From the IMG/VR virus record IMGVR_UViG_3300028886_000037, positions 32,001 to 96,000 of that record: a stretch of DNA of 64,000 bases. One strand, 5' to 3'. Both the position numbers and the translations under genes were made by a program. How positions within the stretch are numbered: position 1 is the first letter of the stretch; each line of letters starts with the position of its first letter. The DNA is from a virus. Its lineage: Duplodnaviria; Caudoviricetes. A model generated the notes under the pieces. That model saw only the letters and a program-made list of their open reading frames with translations. It did no database searches and was not told where the DNA came from. Below, piece after piece: positions 18,972 to 49,674 of this stretch.

Positions 18972-19130
18972 TTATTCGTCCAGCCAGTCGAAGAACTGCT
19001 CTCGGTCGGTTTTGATCGACTTTTCGATCAATTTGAGATTATTCTGAGCTGCAAAACGACGTCCATCCGCCATCAACTCGCCATATTTTTGGATTTTCTC
19101 AATAAGCAGCTTTTTGTCGCTATCCTTCAT
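18972..19130 (-). CDS. First gene of the early operon, 52-aa hypothetical
   Basis: Manual translation MKDSDKKLLIEKIQKYGELMADGRRFAAQNNLKLIEKSIKTDREQFFDWLDE; leader AAGGACC; directly behind an early promoter. Confidence 0.55.
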   Translation of the reverse strand: MKDSDKKLLIEKIQKYGELMADGRRFAAQNNLKLIEKSIKTDREQFFDWLDE

Positions 19131-19164
19131 AGTTGGGGTCCTTTTTTTTGAAGTTTACATATAC

Positions 19165-38266: not shown

Positions 38267-39043
38267 ATGAATCTGAAACTTACATTCAATCAAGTGAAAA
38301 CTTTACAGAAGTGCAAAGAGAATCCGTCGAGATTTCTCAAGTTCTGCACGATTCTCGGTCCGTCTGGCGACCAGGAGTTCAAGCCGTTCAGATGGCAGAA
38401 GAAAGTCCTGAAGTCTTTCAAAGAGACAGCTTTCGATCCAAAGGCGAAGCGAGGACACGTGCTGATTGGTCCCAGACAGTCAGGAAAGACGACACTGATC
38501 GCAGCTTATGCGCTATGGTATGCGCTATTCCACAATGACCGTAACGTATGCTTGATGGCCAGAAAGTGGGCGCAGGCTAACGAGATCTTGCATCTGGTCA
38601 AAGAGATCTACAGAAAGCTGCCCGAGTATATGCGTCTGGATACGAAGCTTGACCGGAAAGAGATCATGCAGTTCACGAACAACAGCAGGATCTTCTCTTG
38701 CTCCGCGAACTCTGCTATGCTTCATGGCCGCACGATTGATCTGTTCGTGATCGACGAAGCCGCGTATATCGATGACTACGACTTCGAAGAGCTGATGATG
38801 TGCATCCTTCCAGTCATGATGTCTCGCCCGTCTGCCCAGACGATATTTCTATCGACTCCGCAGAAGAAAGAGACTACGTTCTACAAGATATACGAAGATG
38901 CGGTATACGATAAGAACTCCTTTGTTCCGCACCGAGTGAAGTGGAACTGTCGTCCCGAGCATACGAAGGAATGGCTCGAGAGCATGAAGAAGAACTTCAA
39001 CAAGGACCACTTCCGTTGCGAGATCCTCGGCGAGTTTATTTAG
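38267..39043 (+). CDS. Terminase large-subunit-like ATPase domain only (258 aa, no nuclease domain)
   Basis: PFRWQ Q-motif, Walker A PRQSGKTT, Walker B LFVIDEAA, coupling motif LSTP; stops at RCEILGEFI. Confidence 0.8.
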   Translation: MNLKLTFNQVKTLQKCKENPSRFLKFCTILGPSGDQEFKPFRWQKKVLKSFKETAFDPKAKRGHVLIGPRQSGKTTLIAAYALWYALFHNDRNVCLMARKWAQANEILHLVKEIYRKLPEYMRLDTKLDRKEIMQFTNNSRIFSCSANSAMLHGRTIDLFVIDEAAYIDDYDFEELMMCILPVMMSRPSAQTIFLSTPQKKETTFYKIYEDAVYDKNSFVPHRVKWNCRPEHTKEWLESMKKNFNKDHFRCEILGEFI

Positions 39044-39642
39044 CCTTTCCAGTGGAACTGGTCGATCGTCATTGACGTTTCGATCTTCTTGACTTCATCC
39101 ATCGTGATCTTGCGCTGGCCGAGAGACTTTTCGACCAGCAGCATGTTGTGAGCGTTGATCTTGTTGATCGGGTCAAGCAGACCCAGACGGAAGATCTTGT
39201 TGAGATTGAGCGAGAGAAGCCAAGCTTCGCGTTCAGAGTAGTAGCGGGACTTCGGCGTGATCTTCATAGAAGACGGCGGAAGCGTCGTTACGACTTCATC
39301 GTCCTTCTGGCTGTAGCGTCCCTGATTGCTGACGAGGTGTAGATAGTGGCAGCACTCGTGAAGGAAGACGGCTGCTGCGTCGTCGTCTTTGAACTTGATC
39401 TTGCCGTCGCTGAGATAGTCTTTGCTCAGGTAGAGGATGTTTACGAAGGACTTAGTGGTAAAGAAGCCGCCGATGCCGCTTCGATCCAAGATCTTCTGGT
39501 CCTGAAATACGACTGATGCGAACTTAGCGCCAGTGATCTTGCCTCGAATGAAGTTCCATGCGATCTGAAGGCCGCTGTTGTCAGTCACCATTTCTAGCTT
39601 GGCGACTTGAATGCGGGTAAAAATAGTGCGATTGTCAATCAT
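39040..39642 (-). CDS. HExxH zinc-metallopeptidase-like early protein
   Basis: FLHECCHYLH plus downstream SEREAW (zincin third-ligand Glu); own early promoter. Confidence 0.6.
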   Translation of the reverse strand: MIDNRTIFTRIQVAKLEMVTDNSGLQIAWNFIRGKITGAKFASVVFQDQKILDRSGIGGFFTTKSFVNILYLSKDYLSDGKIKFKDDDAAAVFLHECCHYLHLVSNQGRYSQKDDEVVTTLPPSSMKITPKSRYYSEREAWLLSLNLNKIFRLGLLDPINKINAHNMLLVEKSLGQRKITMDEVKKIETSMTIDQFHWKG

Positions 39643-39673
39643 AACTGGTCCTTGATGACGGTTCTACATCCAT

Positions 39674-39734: not shown

Positions 39735-39764
39735 GTTTACGAATTCTCCCGAAATACCTATATT
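39735..39764 (+). promoter_or_regulatory. Early promoter
   Basis: GTTTAC-gaattctcccgaaatacc-TATATT. Confidence 0.75.
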
Positions 39765-39796
39765 GTACATACAAACCGTCAACAAGGACCGCTTAA

Positions 39797-41416
39797 ATGA
39801 CCAACGTAGAAGTTTCCGACAAGGCTATCGAGCTCCAGTTCACCAACGCTGTGGACTACTTCGGCCTCTATATTCCTAACCTCCTTTCCTTCTACGCTCT
39901 CTTCACGAAGCGCGTAAACAACGACATCAACGCTATCCGCATCTGCGTCAAGACCGACGTTACTCCGGTTCTCGAATACAACAAAGCTTGGATCTGCAGC
40001 TGCGACCGAGCTGTCTTCGTCTTCATTCTCGCCATCGAGATGTACCGCTTCATCCTTCATCACTGCACGCACCGCGAACTCACTGGCGCAAACGCATTCA
40101 AGGCTTCCACTGCGACTTGCAACAGCAAGGAACTTCAGATCTTCCTCTCTTCTGCACCCGAAGAACTCGCTAAACACGTCCGCGAATCGATCTGGTGCAA
40201 GAAGCTCATCGAAGATGAAATCAACCAGAAGATCGCAGAAAACGACTATTACTACGAATCTGTCTTCCAGCTGCTCAATCAGCACCAGGAACAACAGCAA
40301 CAACAACAGCAGTCGTCATCTCAGGACGGCGAAGGAGATCAAGATGATCAAGACCAGAACAACGAAACCAGCTCCGGCAGTCAAGGCGACGAAGACTCCG
40401 ATTCCGAAAGCGACCAAGACCAAGACGGTTCTGAAGGTCAAGACTCAGAAGATCAAGAAGGTCAAGACTCAGAAGATCAAGAAGGTCAAGAAGGACAAGA
40501 CGGATCTTCTCAGTCTAAGTCTCGAGGAACTGGCGAAGATGACTCCAACGACCAAGGAACTTCAGATGCTCAAGACTCTTCCGACTCCAGTTCAGAATCT
40601 GGTGATGCGGGTGACTCTGATGGGAATCAGAGCTCTGGAGAGGGTCGAGGAACTGGAAACAATCCTGGGGCTCCTGGACAAGATGGCAAGGGAAAGTCAA
40701 AAAAGCAAAACCCCAAAAAAGACGCCTTCGACGAATGGAACCAAAACGGCGAACAGAACACGGAAGAGTGGGGCGCAAACAATATCGTAGACGAGATGAT
40801 CCGAGACGTGATCGAGAATAAGTGCAAGGTCACGGGCTGGGGCAAGCTGAGCGGCGAAGCTGTGGAAGAGATCATGCTCAAGAACAAGCGCAAGGTCAAC
40901 ATCACTCCGATCATCGCTGGCTTCGGCGCTACCGTCCGCTGCCGCAAGCGCGTCTCTACTCGTCTCCGCGTCAACAAGCGCTACGAATATCTTCCGGGCT
41001 ACCGCACCGACCGCAAGACCAAGATGCTCTTCGCCATCGACTCCAGTGGCTCTATGTCCGAGTCAGACATCCGCAAGGGCTGCGAAATTCTGCACAACTT
41101 CTACAAGAAGACCGAAATCGATCTAGCCTTCTGGGACGCTAAGATGGTCAAGCCGCAGAAGCTCAAAAAGAATTTCCAGAAGATCACGGCTCCTGGTCGT
41201 GGCGGTACGGATCCTCACTGCATCGGCGAATATCTCAAGGCCCACAACCTGCACTACGACGGCGTCGTCATCTTCACAGACTGCTACTGGGAATGGAAGG
41301 AAAACAACCTCGGCTCTCACATCTTCGTGATCTCTTCTGAAAAGAACTACACGGTGCCGAAGTTCGTCCGCCATCACGCTTCCATCCAGCAGCTCACTCA
41401 CGTCTTCGACGACTAA
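39797..41416 (+). CDS. vWA-domain protein of DUF2201 type (MoxR partner) with acidic Gln/Asp/Ser linker
   Basis: MIDAS DSSGSMS, GRGGTD, VIFTD; N-terminal peptidase-like domain with degenerate HExxH (LAIEMYRFILHH). Confidence 0.8.
   Translation: MTNVEVSDKAIELQFTNAVDYFGLYIPNLLSFYALFTKRVNNDINAIRICVKTDVTPVLEYNKAWICSCDRAVFVFILAIEMYRFILHHCTHRELTGANAFKASTATCNSKELQIFLSSAPEELAKHVRESIWCKKLIEDEINQKIAENDYYYESVFQLLNQHQEQQQQQQQSSSQDGEGDQDDQDQNNETSSGSQGDEDSDSESDQDQDGSEGQDSEDQEGQDSEDQEGQEGQDGSSQSKSRGTGEDDSNDQGTSDAQDSSDSSSESGDAGDSDGNQSSGEGRGTGNNPGAPGQDGKGKSKKQNPKKDAFDEWNQNGEQNTEEWGANNIVDEMIRDVIENKCKVTGWGKLSGEAVEEIMLKNKRKVNITPIIAGFGATVRCRKRVSTRLRVNKRYEYLPGYRTDRKTKMLFAIDSSGSMSESDIRKGCEILHNFYKKTEIDLAFWDAKMVKPQKLKKNFQKITAPGRGGTDPHCIGEYLKAHNLHYDGVVIFTDCYWEWKENNLGSHIFVISSEKNYTVPKFVRHHASIQQLTHVFDD
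40433..40491 (+). repeat. 24-bp in-frame tandem repeat (EGQDSEDQ, about 2.5 copies)
   Basis: GAAGGTCAAGACTCAGAAGATCAA at 40433 and 40457, partial copy at 40481. Confidence 0.85.
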
Positions 41417-41648: not shown

Positions 41649-41677
41649 AATCCTCTCGTATAAATAACGAGAGGATT
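41649..41677 (+). promoter_or_regulatory. Hairpin carrying a late promoter in its loop and the SD in its 3' arm
   Basis: AATCCTCTCGT-ATAAATA-ACGAGAGGATT; TATAAATA at 41659-41666; ATG at 41680. Confidence 0.8.
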
Positions 41678-41679
41678 TT

Positions 41680-41997
41680 ATGCGAACAGACGAAGGAAGA
41701 CTATGGAACGCCACTAAGGCAGTAGGCCGTGGCTTAGTGAAGGGTGCCGCAGCAGCGCATAATGCGGCTACAAAGGCAGCTGCTGGCGCAAAAGAATTCT
41801 ACGATGCCTCTTATAAGAAGCGTAAGTATAGAGCTCCAGACTGGGAGTCTGTGGCGAAAGAAGTGGCAGACGAGATCAGCGAGACGCTGCAGTATGTCGA
41901 CAAGAAGCTCGTATTGAAGTGGTCGAGATACATCATAGAGGAAATCGCTAAGAGAGATGCACGGATCGGCAAGTTCGCATCCGACTTTGCAAACTAG
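41680..41997 (+). CDS. Late hypothetical protein, paralog of 42009..42260
   Basis: DEGRLW...PDW...KLVLKW...EIAKRD..IGKF. Confidence 0.6.
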   Translation: MRTDEGRLWNATKAVGRGLVKGAAAAHNAATKAAAGAKEFYDASYKKRKYRAPDWESVAKEVADEISETLQYVDKKLVLKWSRYIIEEIAKRDARIGKFASDFAN

Positions 41998-42344: not shown

Positions 42345-42374
42345 GTTTACAATACTCACGGAAATACCTATATT
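42345..42374 (+). promoter_or_regulatory. Early promoter
   Basis: GTTTAC-aatactcacggaaatacc-TATATT, with an upstream A-tract. Confidence 0.75.
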
Positions 42375-42423
42375 GATAATACAAAAAAAGAAATAGAGCT
42401 AACTTCAACAAGGACCAACTAAT

Positions 42424-43536
42424 ATGCTCTCCAAAGTCTCTGTCGCCGAATTCATCGATCTCGCCATCTGCACTCCCGCCCGCAAGGCTATGCTCGCTGT
42501 GGGTGAATTTGGTATCGGTAAAACACAGGTCATCCGCCAGATCGGCGAGAAGCTCGGCCTGAAGGTCATCTGCTTCGACTGCACTCATCTCAACGACGTT
42601 GGCGACATTCTCGGTCTTCCGTCCATCGTCAATGGCAAGACCGTCTTCAACCCCACTTACTGGTATGAACCGGACACTCCGGTGCTGCTCTTCTTCGACG
42701 AAGTCTTCCGTGCTAACCCGGACGTTCGTAACGCTCTCATGAGCCTCTGCCTTGACCAGACTATCGCTGACAAGAAGCTCGCTCCGGGCTCTCGCGTCTT
42801 CGCTGCTGCTAACCCTCCGGGATTCCACGGCTACGAAGGTGAAATTCCCGACCCGGCTCAGCTGTCCCGCTACGCTGCTTACTGGCTCGAACCGACCTTC
42901 CAGGAATGGTACAAGCACGCTAAGGAATGCAAGATCCACCCGGCCATCCTCGAATACCTCAACAAGAACAAGTCCGATCTGGATCCGTTCAGCAACGCTA
43001 AGGCAATGAACGTTGAAGCCGACATGGATGGTCAGGACCTCACCGTCCTTCCGTCTCGCCGTTCTTGGTTCGACTACTCCGACTTCCTCTACAACGCTGA
43101 GAAGGTCAAGGGCGTCAAGAAGCTCACCCGTGAATTCGTCATCCTCGGCGGTTCTGGCTACATCGGTAGCACTATCGCCATCAAGTTCGCTCCGTTCTAC
43201 ATGAACGCTTCCTCTGCCGTTGGCGCAGAAGAGATCCTTCGCGACTGGTCTTCCGTCAAGCCGAAGGATGATGAGAAGTTCGACGTGGCTACCGCTACCA
43301 AGCTCGCTAACGACATCAAGATCTTCGTTCAGTCCTACAAGAAGGACATTCCGGCCAAGTGGAAGAAGAACTTCGGAAGCTTCATCCGCGAAGGCATGAG
43401 CAAGGAAGCTCAGGTCGCTATCATCAACAACCTCGTATACCAGGACATGATCAGCGGAGAAGACTGGGTCTTCCAGATCTCCGACGACTCTCTGCAGGCC
43501 TTCTACGAGGAAACGATCGCTTCCAAGGTCGCTTAG
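42424..43536 (+). CDS. MoxR-family AAA+ ATPase
   Basis: Walker A GEFGIGKT, DILGLP, Walker B LFFDEVFRA, sensor AANP, DPAQLSRY, PSRRSW. Confidence 0.85.
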   Translation: MLSKVSVAEFIDLAICTPARKAMLAVGEFGIGKTQVIRQIGEKLGLKVICFDCTHLNDVGDILGLPSIVNGKTVFNPTYWYEPDTPVLLFFDEVFRANPDVRNALMSLCLDQTIADKKLAPGSRVFAAANPPGFHGYEGEIPDPAQLSRYAAYWLEPTFQEWYKHAKECKIHPAILEYLNKNKSDLDPFSNAKAMNVEADMDGQDLTVLPSRRSWFDYSDFLYNAEKVKGVKKLTREFVILGGSGYIGSTIAIKFAPFYMNASSAVGAEEILRDWSSVKPKDDEKFDVATATKLANDIKIFVQSYKKDIPAKWKKNFGSFIREGMSKEAQVAIINNLVYQDMISGEDWVFQISDDSLQAFYEETIASKVA

Positions 43537-43559
43537 CGCAAGCTTCGCTTAAGACTTTC

Positions 43560-43614
43560 GGTCCCGTCTCCTTCAATTCAACTGGTCCTTGTCTTTCGGA
43601 GACGGGACCTTTTT
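43560..43614 (+). terminator. Terminator with a 12-bp stem and an unusually long 26-nt loop
   Basis: GGTCCCGTCTCC / GGAGACGGGACC followed by TTTTT; TATAAATA follows at 43616-43623. Confidence 0.75.
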
Positions 43615-43639
43615 CTATAAATAAATCGAGAGGTACACT

Positions 43640-43876
43640 ATGAACGAGAAAGAAGCTATAAAGACTCTGAAGGACTCTGGACTCAAGGTCATCAAGGAAT
43701 ATGCAGACACTTACACGAACGACACTTATGATCAGCTCTTCGAAACAATCTACGATATGAGCGCCGAAGAGTGTGCCGATCTTTGCGAGACGATCCACAA
43801 GATCTGCTTCACTAGCGAGTACAAGCGTGCGATGACGTTCAAGCAGGATCTGATCCGCCTGCTCAAGGGTCTGTAA
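43640..43876 (+). CDS. Small late protein (EAIKTLKDSGLKVIKE motif)
   Basis: Late promoter plus SD GAGGT; N-terminal motif resembles the repeats in 23191..23589. Confidence 0.6.
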   Translation: MNEKEAIKTLKDSGLKVIKEYADTYTNDTYDQLFETIYDMSAEECADLCETIHKICFTSEYKRAMTFKQDLIRLLKGL

Positions 43877-43901: not shown

Positions 43902-43931
43902 AAGAGAGGAAGACTTTCATCTTCCTCTCTT
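43902..43931. terminator. Terminator hairpin between convergent genes
   Basis: AAGAGAGGAAGA...TCTTCCTCTCTT; arms similar to the hairpin at 52528-52559. Confidence 0.6.
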
Positions 43932-43952: not shown

Positions 43953-45968
43953 TTAGAGATCTTTCAGCTGTGTGGCGTAGTCGTACCAGTTGCGGGCGTC
44001 GAACTCCTTCTTGCGGTCCTTAGAGTAGGACTTAGTCGGAGTAAGGAAGCCGACGATTCTAGTGAATCGGTCATAGATTCCTTCGCCACAGACTGGGCAA
44101 GTGTCTCTGCCTACGAAGCCGTGGTGATTCTTGCAGACGTTGATCTTCGTGTTGAATGCGAAGTAGATCACGCCAGCGTTAGCGATCTTGTTCAGCATCT
44201 CCCATGCGACATCATTTGACGGGAACTTGCTCTCCACGTTGATGTGAGCGATTGCGCCACCTGAGCACATTGGGTCAAGGATAGCAGAGAGGTTGATCTT
44301 CTCTTGGATCGTGCACTTCTCCTTTAGCGGGATCCACTGGTTAGAGTAGATGAAGTCGTCGTTGCGGTCATAGAGAAGGTTGTCTTTCTGGCAGAGAATC
44401 ACTGCAGCGCGTTCAGCTGGCACTGACTCGATGTTGAAGCTGTAGTCCTGAGTGAAGTTGTCCTTCACTTCGTTGATCGTGTCGAAGATAGCCTGAGCGA
44501 GATCGATTCCTTCCTTGGTGTAAGACTTGTTGCCGAACTCGTCAGTCTCGATGAATCCGAACTCCTTGATCGTCTCGTAGAGACCGAGAATTCCGACTGT
44601 GCTGTACTGATGGTTGATGTCGATGCCTCCTTCGACGTAGTTCGGGAGTAGGCCTCTCTCGACGTTCTTTCTGATGATCTCGCGCTGGACGTCGAGCAGC
44701 TTGCAGCACAGCTCAGTTCTCTTCTTGAGAAGCTTGAGGAAGTTGTTGATGCTGTGGATCTTGTTGTCCTTCTTGATTCCAGACTCAATAGCGACTCTCA
44801 CTAGGTTCATTGTGTTGACCTTGATCGATCCGATAGAGAGCGAGGTTCCGCCGATGGAGTTCATGAACCCGTTGAGCTTTTCGTTGTTCTGTCCGATAAC
44901 GACTTTCTTTCCGTCTTTCTTCAACCCAGTAGTCGAGGATAGCAAACGACAGCAGTTGCTCAGTGTAGTGACGTCCTTTGAGACGAAGAAGTTCGAGTCG
45001 TTCCACTCAGTGTTGTGGTCAGAGCACCAGCGAGCGAACTCTTCATCGACGAACTTGCCGTCCTTGAACTGAAGGCTGTAAGTCAGGACGGGGAACGTGA
45101 ACATGTTCTCGCTTCTGATCTGAGATACGACTTCCATGAAGATCTTCTGGTGCTCGATGAACTCTTCGACGCAATCGATGAACAGCGTGCCGTCTGGGAA
45201 TTCTAGACCGCCGAACAGAGATTCGCAGTATTGACGGTCAAAGATCGAAACGTTCACGAAGGCTGTCTGGTCGATGCGCATAAAGGGCTGATTCAGGCGG
45301 TATATGAGCTTTTGGAAGCTCTGCCTTAGGTAACTGTCCGGGTCCTTGGTAAAGAAGCCCTGCTGCACGTCTTTGCGCCAAAAATAATAGGTCCAGACGA
45401 GAATGTTCGGGATGCCGACTGCGCCAGAGCTGCGATTGCTCATGAAGGATACGAACTCGATCACGTCGTCCAAGAATGTAGTGAGATGCTTGGGCGGGAT
45501 GTTGTTGTAGTTCTTGAGGAAGAACAGACCCTCTTTCGCTAGTCTAGTGAGATCGTAAGCGAAGCAGTAGCCCATGTAGGTCGAAGTGCAAGCGTCATGC
45601 AGATAGAATCCGCCGTTGTACTCCTGTTCGAGCCACTCACGAGCCGTCTTCAGCCCGTACTTCTGCTTGAGCTCTAGGAATAGCTTGTTGAATGCGAAGA
45701 TCTTGTCAAGCGGCTTGTCCTTCTCGTTGAGCAGAGCGCGAATGTCCTTCGTGGAAGCGTTCGCGTTAGCGTCGATAGTTACGTCTGCGGTGACAGCGTT
45801 CTTTGCAGTGAATGCATCAATGAAGTCACTGAAGTTCACGTTCTTCTCGGCGAATCCGTTGAGAATCTCAAAATCTTCTCCATACTTTTCCATGACTGCG
45901 GATAGAGCCTTGTTGAAGTCCTTGTTGACCTTCAGTGGGATGTTGAAAACAGAATTGTTGACTGCCAT
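43953..45968 (-). CDS. nrdD: Anaerobic (class III) ribonucleoside-triphosphate reductase
   Basis: FYLHD..YC, FTFPVLT, SNCCRL finger loop, ESVPAE, SGGAIAH, C-terminal CPVC and RIVGFL glycyl-radical motif. Confidence 0.95.
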   Translation of the reverse strand: MAVNNSVFNIPLKVNKDFNKALSAVMEKYGEDFEILNGFAEKNVNFSDFIDAFTAKNAVTADVTIDANANASTKDIRALLNEKDKPLDKIFAFNKLFLELKQKYGLKTAREWLEQEYNGGFYLHDACTSTYMGYCFAYDLTRLAKEGLFFLKNYNNIPPKHLTTFLDDVIEFVSFMSNRSSGAVGIPNILVWTYYFWRKDVQQGFFTKDPDSYLRQSFQKLIYRLNQPFMRIDQTAFVNVSIFDRQYCESLFGGLEFPDGTLFIDCVEEFIEHQKIFMEVVSQIRSENMFTFPVLTYSLQFKDGKFVDEEFARWCSDHNTEWNDSNFFVSKDVTTLSNCCRLLSSTTGLKKDGKKVVIGQNNEKLNGFMNSIGGTSLSIGSIKVNTMNLVRVAIESGIKKDNKIHSINNFLKLLKKRTELCCKLLDVQREIIRKNVERGLLPNYVEGGIDINHQYSTVGILGLYETIKEFGFIETDEFGNKSYTKEGIDLAQAIFDTINEVKDNFTQDYSFNIESVPAERAAVILCQKDNLLYDRNDDFIYSNQWIPLKEKCTIQEKINLSAILDPMCSGGAIAHINVESKFPSNDVAWEMLNKIANAGVIYFAFNTKINVCKNHHGFVGRDTCPVCGEGIYDRFTRIVGFLTPTKSYSKDRKKEFDARNWYDYATQLKDL

Positions 45969-46115
45969 ATTGTTTCCTTGGTTCAAAAATCTTTACTTTG
46001 CTACATAATGAAAGCAGCGCATAGACAGCGCTGCTGTGAATAAAGTTGACTATTTAAGGAGTTCCGTGTAGCATTGTCGATTATTTATACCGTTCGAAAG
46101 CTCCAAAACTCACCT

Positions 46116-49452: not shown

Positions 49453-49674
49453 TTATCTCTCTCGATAGATGATCCGTCCGCGAGTCAAGTCGTATGGACA
49501 GAGCTCGATCTGTACCCGGTCGTCTGGGTTAGTTCTGATGAAAGCTTTGCCGTGCATCTTGCCAGCGAGGGTACAGATGCACTCTTGGCCGTTCTCGAGG
49601 GCGCACTTGAATCTGATTCCGCCGAGCGCTTCGAGAACGATGCCGTTCAGGATGATTCCCTTTTCCTTAGCCAT
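49453..49674 (-). CDS. infA: Translation initiation factor IF-1
   Basis: MAKEKGI...G.VLEAL....F...LENG......AGKM...FIR..P.DRV.IEL.PYDLTRGRIIYR. Confidence 0.95.
   Translation of the reverse strand: MAKEKGIILNGIVLEALGGIRFKCALENGQECICTLAGKMHGKAFIRTNPDDRVQIELCPYDLTRGRIIYRER

Follow-up and report, generated by a model that had tools for sequence, protein, structure and literature searches.

Introduction

How lytic phages silence their early genes is incompletely known, T4 included, and the post-transcriptional means described for T4 are proteins. Phage RNAs that act by pairing include the c4/CI RNAs of P1/P7/P4, among which c4 pairs through loop-exposed sequences. In T4, the endoribonuclease RegB inactivates early mRNAs at a Shine-Dalgarno (SD) motif, and RegA acts as a repressor (PMC3014915). 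In bacteria, LhrC1-5 of Listeria monocytogenes are sRNAs with an anti-SD seed in a loop (PMC5880928), the terminator loop of OxyS pairs with the fhlA initiation region, as cited in PMC11979758, and the icaR mRNA of Staphylococcus aureus has a 3′ UTR anti-SD motif able to pair with its own ribosome-binding site (PMC3868564). The phage antisense RNAs sar (P22), OOP and aQ (lambda), and STnc6030 (BTP1) have one or two targets, and the 2025 review of phage sRNAs from which this is taken describes single-target antisense RNAs, mostly of temperate phages (PMC12197685). T4-like phages also contain PeSLs, promoter-terminator cassettes described as recombination points (PMC4122927).

Here we analyze a terminator hairpin behind the moxR gene of a T4-like phage. 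A sequence-only reading had proposed that its loop is antisense to the ribosome-binding leader shared by early genes and could act as an sRNA feedback switch.

Results

The window is the whole stretch of DNA analyzed here, 64,000 bases long, and corresponds to G000:C1:32001-96000 of a 247,923-base virus genome rated 98% complete, with 47% G+C and 37 tRNA genes. The phage is uncultured, T4-like and from the gut, with T4-type baseplate, terminase and gp23 genes near the window; no integrase was found in the genome at its rated completeness of 98%. The relatives comprise a related complete genome of 243 kb (G001), whose MoxR is 81% identical, and metagenomic records, the names of which, taken by themselves, suggest a rumen origin. 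The closest named MoxR (39% identity) is that of a Fibrobacter MAG, a bacterial homolog without such a hairpin, and the phage IF-1 points weakly to a host in the Planctomycetota or Spirochaetota. This translation initiation factor (73 aa) is encoded at window 49453-49674 (minus), a position kept in all relatives. Among the 37 tRNA genes, ARAGORN predicted one with the anticodon UUA, which would read the stop codon UAA, at G000:C1:153019-153091 (minus).

The moxR locus contains the following features, in window coordinates.

42346..42374, plus strand: sigma70-like early promoter of moxR, TTTACA-17-TATATT (a consensus match), predicted source of the hairpin RNA
42424..43536, plus strand: moxR-type AAA+ ATPase gene, 370 aa, carrying the hairpin on its transcript (phrog_1297, E 3e-40; PF07728)
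43537..43559, plus strand: variable linker with a weak mini-hairpin
43560..43609, plus strand: intrinsic-terminator hairpin of moxR, 12-bp stem with covariation and 26-nt loop
43583..43590, plus strand: invariant 8-nt loop core UGGUCCUU, complement of the early-leader tag AAGGACCA and candidate seed
43610..43614, plus strand: U-tail of 5 T, with U-rich tails in relatives too
43616..43623, plus strand: T4-type late promoter motif TATAAATA, serving a 78-aa ORF at 43640-43876
43902..43931, minus strand: separate terminator of the convergent nrdD gene (43953-45986), with a short, unconserved loop, used as a control

The 12-bp stem with a 26-nt loop, noticed earlier as closing the moxR transcript, was recovered. 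The two arms of the stem, 43560-43571 and 43598-43609, match perfectly over 12 bp, 9 of them G-C (z = -3.4), and the five U of the hairpin and its position 23 nt past the moxR stop codon are those of a predicted intrinsic terminator, although the U-tails are weaker in some relatives. As the U-tail lies on the plus side, the plus strand is the RNA that ends at the hairpin, and as nrdD has its own terminator, minus-strand RNA should end before reaching it. The hairpin is single-copy in the genome by blastn search. The extent first assigned to the element, 43537-43614, is retained for 43560-43614 as the element proper and given up for 43537-43559, a linker that is not essential, since relatives have 0, 1 or 2 copies of it. 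The 78-aa ORF downstream is also outside the element and is missing from many relatives. A short GCAA-loop repeat overlaps the moxR stop codon in the window (43534-43552) and in L005, L008 and L080, in 0-2 tandem copies, and a similar 14-mer is found at G000:C1:63068-63081.

The hairpin stands 3′ of moxR in all 19 distinct relatives inspected, with protein identities between 98% and ~58%. Among the 132 pair cells of 11 distinct stems, 131 are standard, whereas swapping of the arms leaves 109 on average; in an automatic alignment, 94% were paired and 7 of 12 pairs had two-sided changes, values reached by no shuffle. The loop varies from 11 to 29 nt in length and at every position beyond the core, whereas the eight bases UGGUCCUU are unchanged in 16/16 distinct loops, which answers the question of loop conservation raised by the sequence-only reading. 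By comparison, identity to the window is only 49-70% at four-fold-degenerate sites of moxR, and the loops of the neighboring nrdD terminator are short and share no sequence. Pattern scans of viral contigs found the loop within a hairpin only in this phage clade, other matches being due to chance. The moxR hairpin is a real, selected RNA element. As in an sRNA seed, its 8-nt core is invariant and predicted to be unpaired (p 0.94-1.0 for 43582-43588, and only 0.2-0.4 for the next UUG), and the predicted targets are class-specific. A scan of the final 400 nt of moxR in 12 phages found no early or late promoter motif; the RNA would thus be the moxR message from the early promoter or a 3′ fragment left by decay, and a free sRNA would need processing.

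The complement of the core marks a class of early genes. The motif AAGGACC followed by a start codon occurs at ~18 sites in the genome. When early-promoter-first genes are defined as those first behind a TTTACA/TTTAGA-17-TATATT promoter, the tag is found before 16 of 37 such genes and before 1 of 318 others in this phage (automatic gene calls; Fisher p 1e-16), and before 20 of 32 against 4 of 304 in G001 (p 3e-20). In line with the suggestion that late genes would escape, the tag is present at 0/42 and 0/37 genes, respectively, that come first behind the T4 late motif TATAAATA. As over half of the early-promoter-first genes of this phage (21/37) are untagged, a subset would be governed rather than early expression as a whole. 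AAGGA is followed by CC in 15 of 26 early-first genes, whereas elsewhere it is mostly followed by GA or AA and by CC in 1/70 cases; the remaining phage genes have ordinary AAGGAG-type sites. Because CC weakens pairing with the standard 16S tail (-4.9 vs -8.3 kcal/mol), it would be maintained for another reason. A host whose altered 16S tail would match the tag was considered and rejected: a strict pattern found no 16S-like end followed by GGTCCTT in genome contigs, and the ordinary AAGGAG-type sites on the other phage genes contradict it as well.

Tagged genes encode both halves of a split NAD-dependent ligase, a CCA-adding enzyme, a helicase, a metallophosphoesterase, MoxR, the vWA-like protein and many unknowns. 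The two ligase genes are 7 kb apart (L396:2476-3570 and L396:10287-11147, minus), each with its own early promoter and its own AAGGACC tag. Tagged leaders are short, 5′-terminal and weakly folded, with 18-22 nt between the -10 box and the tag in 15/18 cases. In the moxR leader (window 42375-42423), this distance is 36 nt; the leader is longer than most tagged ones in nearly all relatives too, and the extra length might weaken the source message as a target. Near nrdD, T4-like gut phages at a greater distance (~70% NrdD identity) show no moxR and no tag.

Four tagged leaders had been named as complementary to the loop.

39643..39654, minus strand: 12-nt leader tag of the 200-aa HExxH gene (39040-39642; early promoter 39702-39674)
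39782..39791, plus strand: leader tag of the vWA-like gene (39797-41416; early promoter 39736-39764)
42408..42417, plus strand: moxR leader tag, a 10-nt complement to the loop
19137..19143, minus strand: 7-nt leader tag of the first gene (18972-19130) of a distant early operon

When recomputed, all these complementarities were exact: 43580-43591 is complementary over its full length to minus-strand 39643-39654, a 12-mer running up to the HExxH start codon, and the loop matches the moxR leader over 10 nt, the vWA leader over 9 nt plus a G-U, and 19137-19143 over 7 nt. The HExxH leader is the best target in this genome (12 nt, -20.5 kcal/mol) and, being on the opposite strand, can be reached only by pairing in trans. 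The 12-nt match holds here but not as a conserved seed, which is 8 nt long; some relatives do not have it, and on its own it is not significant (blastn E 1.8). Ranked by loop duplex energy, 12 of the top 18 among 355 leaders are tagged early genes, the order that had been expected, in a test that is partly circular. Loop-leader duplexes reach -16 to -25 kcal/mol, compared with -5 for the SD:anti-SD pairing of the tag, in energies that leave out the topological cost of pairing within a closed loop. Pairing of leader and loop would form a pseudoknot, which is beyond the fold program, so that the whole-transcript fold says nothing on pairing in cis. The suggestion that host AAGGA leaders might also be hit looks weak: selectivity lies in the CC, which is absent from the ordinary leaders of the phage, and a broad effect on host mRNAs is unlikely, as AAGGAG sites would pair over only ~7 nt.

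The flanks of the loop core also appear to covary with the leaders. The U-run of the loop (2, 3 or 4) after the CC of the core tracks the A-run of the leaders before GGACC: loops with 2 U go with local leaders with 2 A, and loops with 3-4 U with at least one local leader with 3-4 A. The base 5′ of the core tends to match changes in the base after the tag. Covariation of the kind predicted earlier is indicated for these flanks, cognate combinations beating non-cognate ones with permutation p values of 5e-5 for 12 phages and 0.003 for 7 lineage representatives, in a test that ignores kinship, reads 2-4 leaders per distant phage and has a constant core. Since the lineages are related, this amounts to perhaps four or five independent changes. 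In L291 and L295, the cognate fit is no better than the non-cognate one. In all relatives, the loop is complementary to its own leader over 8-13 nt, and other leaders often fit better. In L077, its complementarity to the vWA leader extends over 21 nt and takes in everything between the predicted +1 and the start codon (-24.9 kcal/mol), whereas its own moxR leader, pairing over only 9 nt, is the worst partner. The HExxH leader has lost the tag in L081 but tracks the loop in L077, L080 and L295 (4 A in L077 and L295); as it lies on the opposite strand, this tracking speaks for an effect in trans.

A search for further hairpins of this kind, suggested at the outset, yielded one, at G000:C1:11036-11068 (minus; L393:1036-1068), 64 kb from the moxR hairpin. 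It has the same anti-tag core, an 11-bp stem and an 11-nt loop. GGTCCTT occurs at 38 sites in the genome, two of which are within loops of strong stems; both are U-tailed terminators with the tag complement on the tailed strand, that is, 2 of 33 terminator-like loops (rough P 2e-5). The second hairpin is kept in G002 and in G001, where it shows a compensatory pair and the gene in front is another one, and in L082, L086 and L313 the 11-nt loop form stands after moxR in place of the long form.

Several other structured elements were seen in these genomes. The second hairpin of G001 has no gene directly before it, and a possible extended -10 box could give a stand-alone RNA of ~75 nt with two hairpins. 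In this phage, another hairpin just upstream of the second terminator (L393:1072-1098; G000:C1:11072-11098, minus) has a loop that complements AAATGACCAA, the start-codon region of vWA; it is kept in G002 and differs in G001. An ORF-free unit behind an early promoter, L399:895-1040 (G000:C1:235895-236040, minus), has at its end a terminator with an 11-nt loop that resembles the standard 16S tail (UCACCUCC), and blastn found no match to the unit in G001. Finally, an 11-bp inverted repeat at window 41649-41677 holds a late promoter motif in its loop and the SD of a 105-aa gene (41680-41997) in its 3′ arm; by analogy, it looks like the hiding of late SDs on early read-through RNA in T4.

Discussion

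As the loops mirror the tag of ~18 early genes, they are predicted most likely to pair with those messages and to turn early protein synthesis down. That the pairing with early leaders is functional, across all the readings in which the loop pairs, seems likely to us, even if terminator loops may act without target pairing (PMC11979758), a point against it. As to the form of the pairing, the sequences make it reasonably probable that the loop displays an antisense RNA that would occlude early ribosome-binding sites in trans and lower translation. At -16 to -25 kcal/mol, a duplex that covers the SD would prevail over the 30S subunit, which favors translational repression in trans.

In the proposed mechanism, the moxR hairpin would double as an early-transcript terminator and an antisense module. 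The first genes behind many early promoters carry AAGGACC, in which a weak SD (AAGGA) would be combined with a private CC that does not pair with 16S rRNA, and the G-C-rich stem would keep the complement of this tag exposed in the loop. As early transcripts, or their exonuclease-resistant 3′ ends, accumulate, the loop could pair with the 5′ leaders of other early mRNAs, which are short and unstructured, and with that of moxR itself, over 8-16 nt. The free 5′ end of a short leader could wind into the closed loop, which would fit the near absence of the tag from internal genes. Covering of the ribosome-binding site would lower initiation, probably followed by decay or polarity, and the second terminator, G000:C1:11036-11068 (minus), would act alike through its 11-nt loop. 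As the regulator would itself be an early product, the outcome would be negative feedback on one class of early genes, with late and ordinary leaders spared. The role could be that of an early-to-late timer, as the sequence-only reading had it, of a dose limiter or of a superinfection bar. Taken further, an RNA-only circuit could replace RegB/RegA in this lytic T4-like phage, with a private tag on the early class, antisense terminator loops as its readers, a self-limiting early phase and possibly superinfection exclusion; we put this forward tentatively, as a possibility with somewhat less than an even chance.

The same pairing could act chiefly locally, the 3′ loop meeting its own or a co-transcribed vWA leader in an icaR-like 5′-3′ closure (PMC3868564) that sets MoxR and vWA levels, with the other tags reflecting shared cassette ancestry. 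In every relative, the hairpin indeed goes with moxR, its best partner is often the vWA or the moxR leader, and no clear U-tailed stop separates moxR from the vWA gene upstream on the same strand. However, the tag is present at 16-20 dispersed genes whose remaining leader bases differ, the opposite-strand HExxH leader tracks the loop, the own leader is the worst partner in L077 and a second hairpin lies 64 kb away, so that we regard a chiefly local role as unlikely. It is also conceivable, though quite unlikely, that the pairing is real without being simple repression and instead protects early mRNAs at their 5′ ends, changes how they are processed or serves mainly to exclude a second phage. 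Such roles would suit the extension of the complement to the predicted +1 in several lineages and the clade-wide invariant core, which would cross-react among relatives, and antisense-based exclusion is described for STnc6030 of BTP1 (PMC12197685). Yet the invariant part spans the SD and should block 30S binding, and the phage has no integrase, whereas known RNA immunity systems belong to temperate phages.

Other explanations do without leader-loop pairing. T4 RegB inactivates early mRNAs via the SD motif (PMC3014915), and the tag, 18-22 nt after the -10 box in 15/18 cases, might be the site of a RegA/RegB-like repressor or nuclease or of a DNA-binding factor, the hairpin being a decoy on minus-strand RNA or DNA; in L012 and L314, a convergent gene ends right at the hairpin. 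We hold this to be very unlikely, as the U-tail lies on the complement-carrying strand in both hairpins, the terminator of nrdD intervenes, RegA and RegB were not found at E<=1, and flanks that track base for base are better explained by pairing. That the hairpin is an ordinary terminator with an accidental loop, be it a relic minus-strand leader, a duplicated stem arm or part of a PeSL-like cassette in inverted orientation, is largely refuted by conservation and strikes us as highly improbable. The minus-strand reading of the loop does resemble an early leader, T4-like phages shuffle promoter-terminator cassettes (PMC4122927), and the 3′ arm is, in this lineage, an alternative partner for the core (-15.5 vs -26.4 kcal/mol). 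But the core is invariant despite changes in the stem, the flanks and synonymous sites, the alternative arm pairing is impossible in L081, L083, L084 and L085, and there are two independent loci. The relic leader of a lost minus-strand gene, which the sequence-only reading had named as the outcome that would undo it, is contradicted by the lack of an upstream -10 box and of a conserved start codon or ORF. A duplicated stem arm or two-state terminator was also rejected, being possible in some lineages only and with no shared downstream gene to regulate.

If the trans antisense reading is true, a terminator loop reaching a whole gene class by way of a two-base extension of the SD would represent a regulatory layout new to lytic phages as well as a compact, orthogonal antisense part. 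It also gives a search rule, a terminator loop complementary to a class-specific leader. Our literature search, which had incomplete coverage, found nothing on a phage terminator-loop or anti-SD RNA directed against early genes. No Rfam family, including C4, LhrC, OxyS and ar14, matched the window at the gathering threshold; around the moxR hairpin and the second hairpin, only chance-level scores far below threshold were obtained, and the C4 model did not match the hairpin. Searches for regA and regB (PF01818, PF10715) gave no candidate at E<=1 in the 98% complete genome, in which very distant homologs may escape.

PeSLs resemble the system described here in that early-promoter and leader elements are repeated and dispersed through the genome, but here the terminator loop complements the leaders, is not joined to an early promoter, and belongs to a single-copy hairpin followed by a late promoter motif or another terminator. 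With sar, OOP, aQ, STnc6030 and c4, it would share the control of phage genes by a phage RNA through base pairing; these are RNAs of temperate phages and mostly cis-encoded, whereas the predicted targets here are a dispersed multi-gene class in a T4-like phage without integrase. With LhrC and OxyS, it has in common a pyrimidine-rich seed exposed in a stem-loop or terminator loop and complementary to the SD region of mRNAs. Unlike them, it is phage-encoded, lies at an mRNA 3′ end, would address AAGGA-CC, the private non-rRNA tag that early genes of the same phage carry, and has no sequence or Rfam similarity to them. The icaR 3′ UTR has an anti-SD motif able to pair with the ribosome-binding site of its own mRNA, as the phage loop might, but the phage motif is in the terminator loop of a 70-nt UTR, the tag is on 16-20 unlinked genes and the phage's own leader is often not the best partner. 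As with RegB/RegA, early mRNAs would be inactivated post-transcriptionally through a motif in the initiation region by an early, self-limiting product, although by RNA pairing rather than by a protein and at AAGGACC rather than GGAG. The hairpin thus falls outside all the families compared; by analogy, it would act like the loop-seed anti-SD sRNAs and the icaR 3′ UTR, and would parallel RegB.
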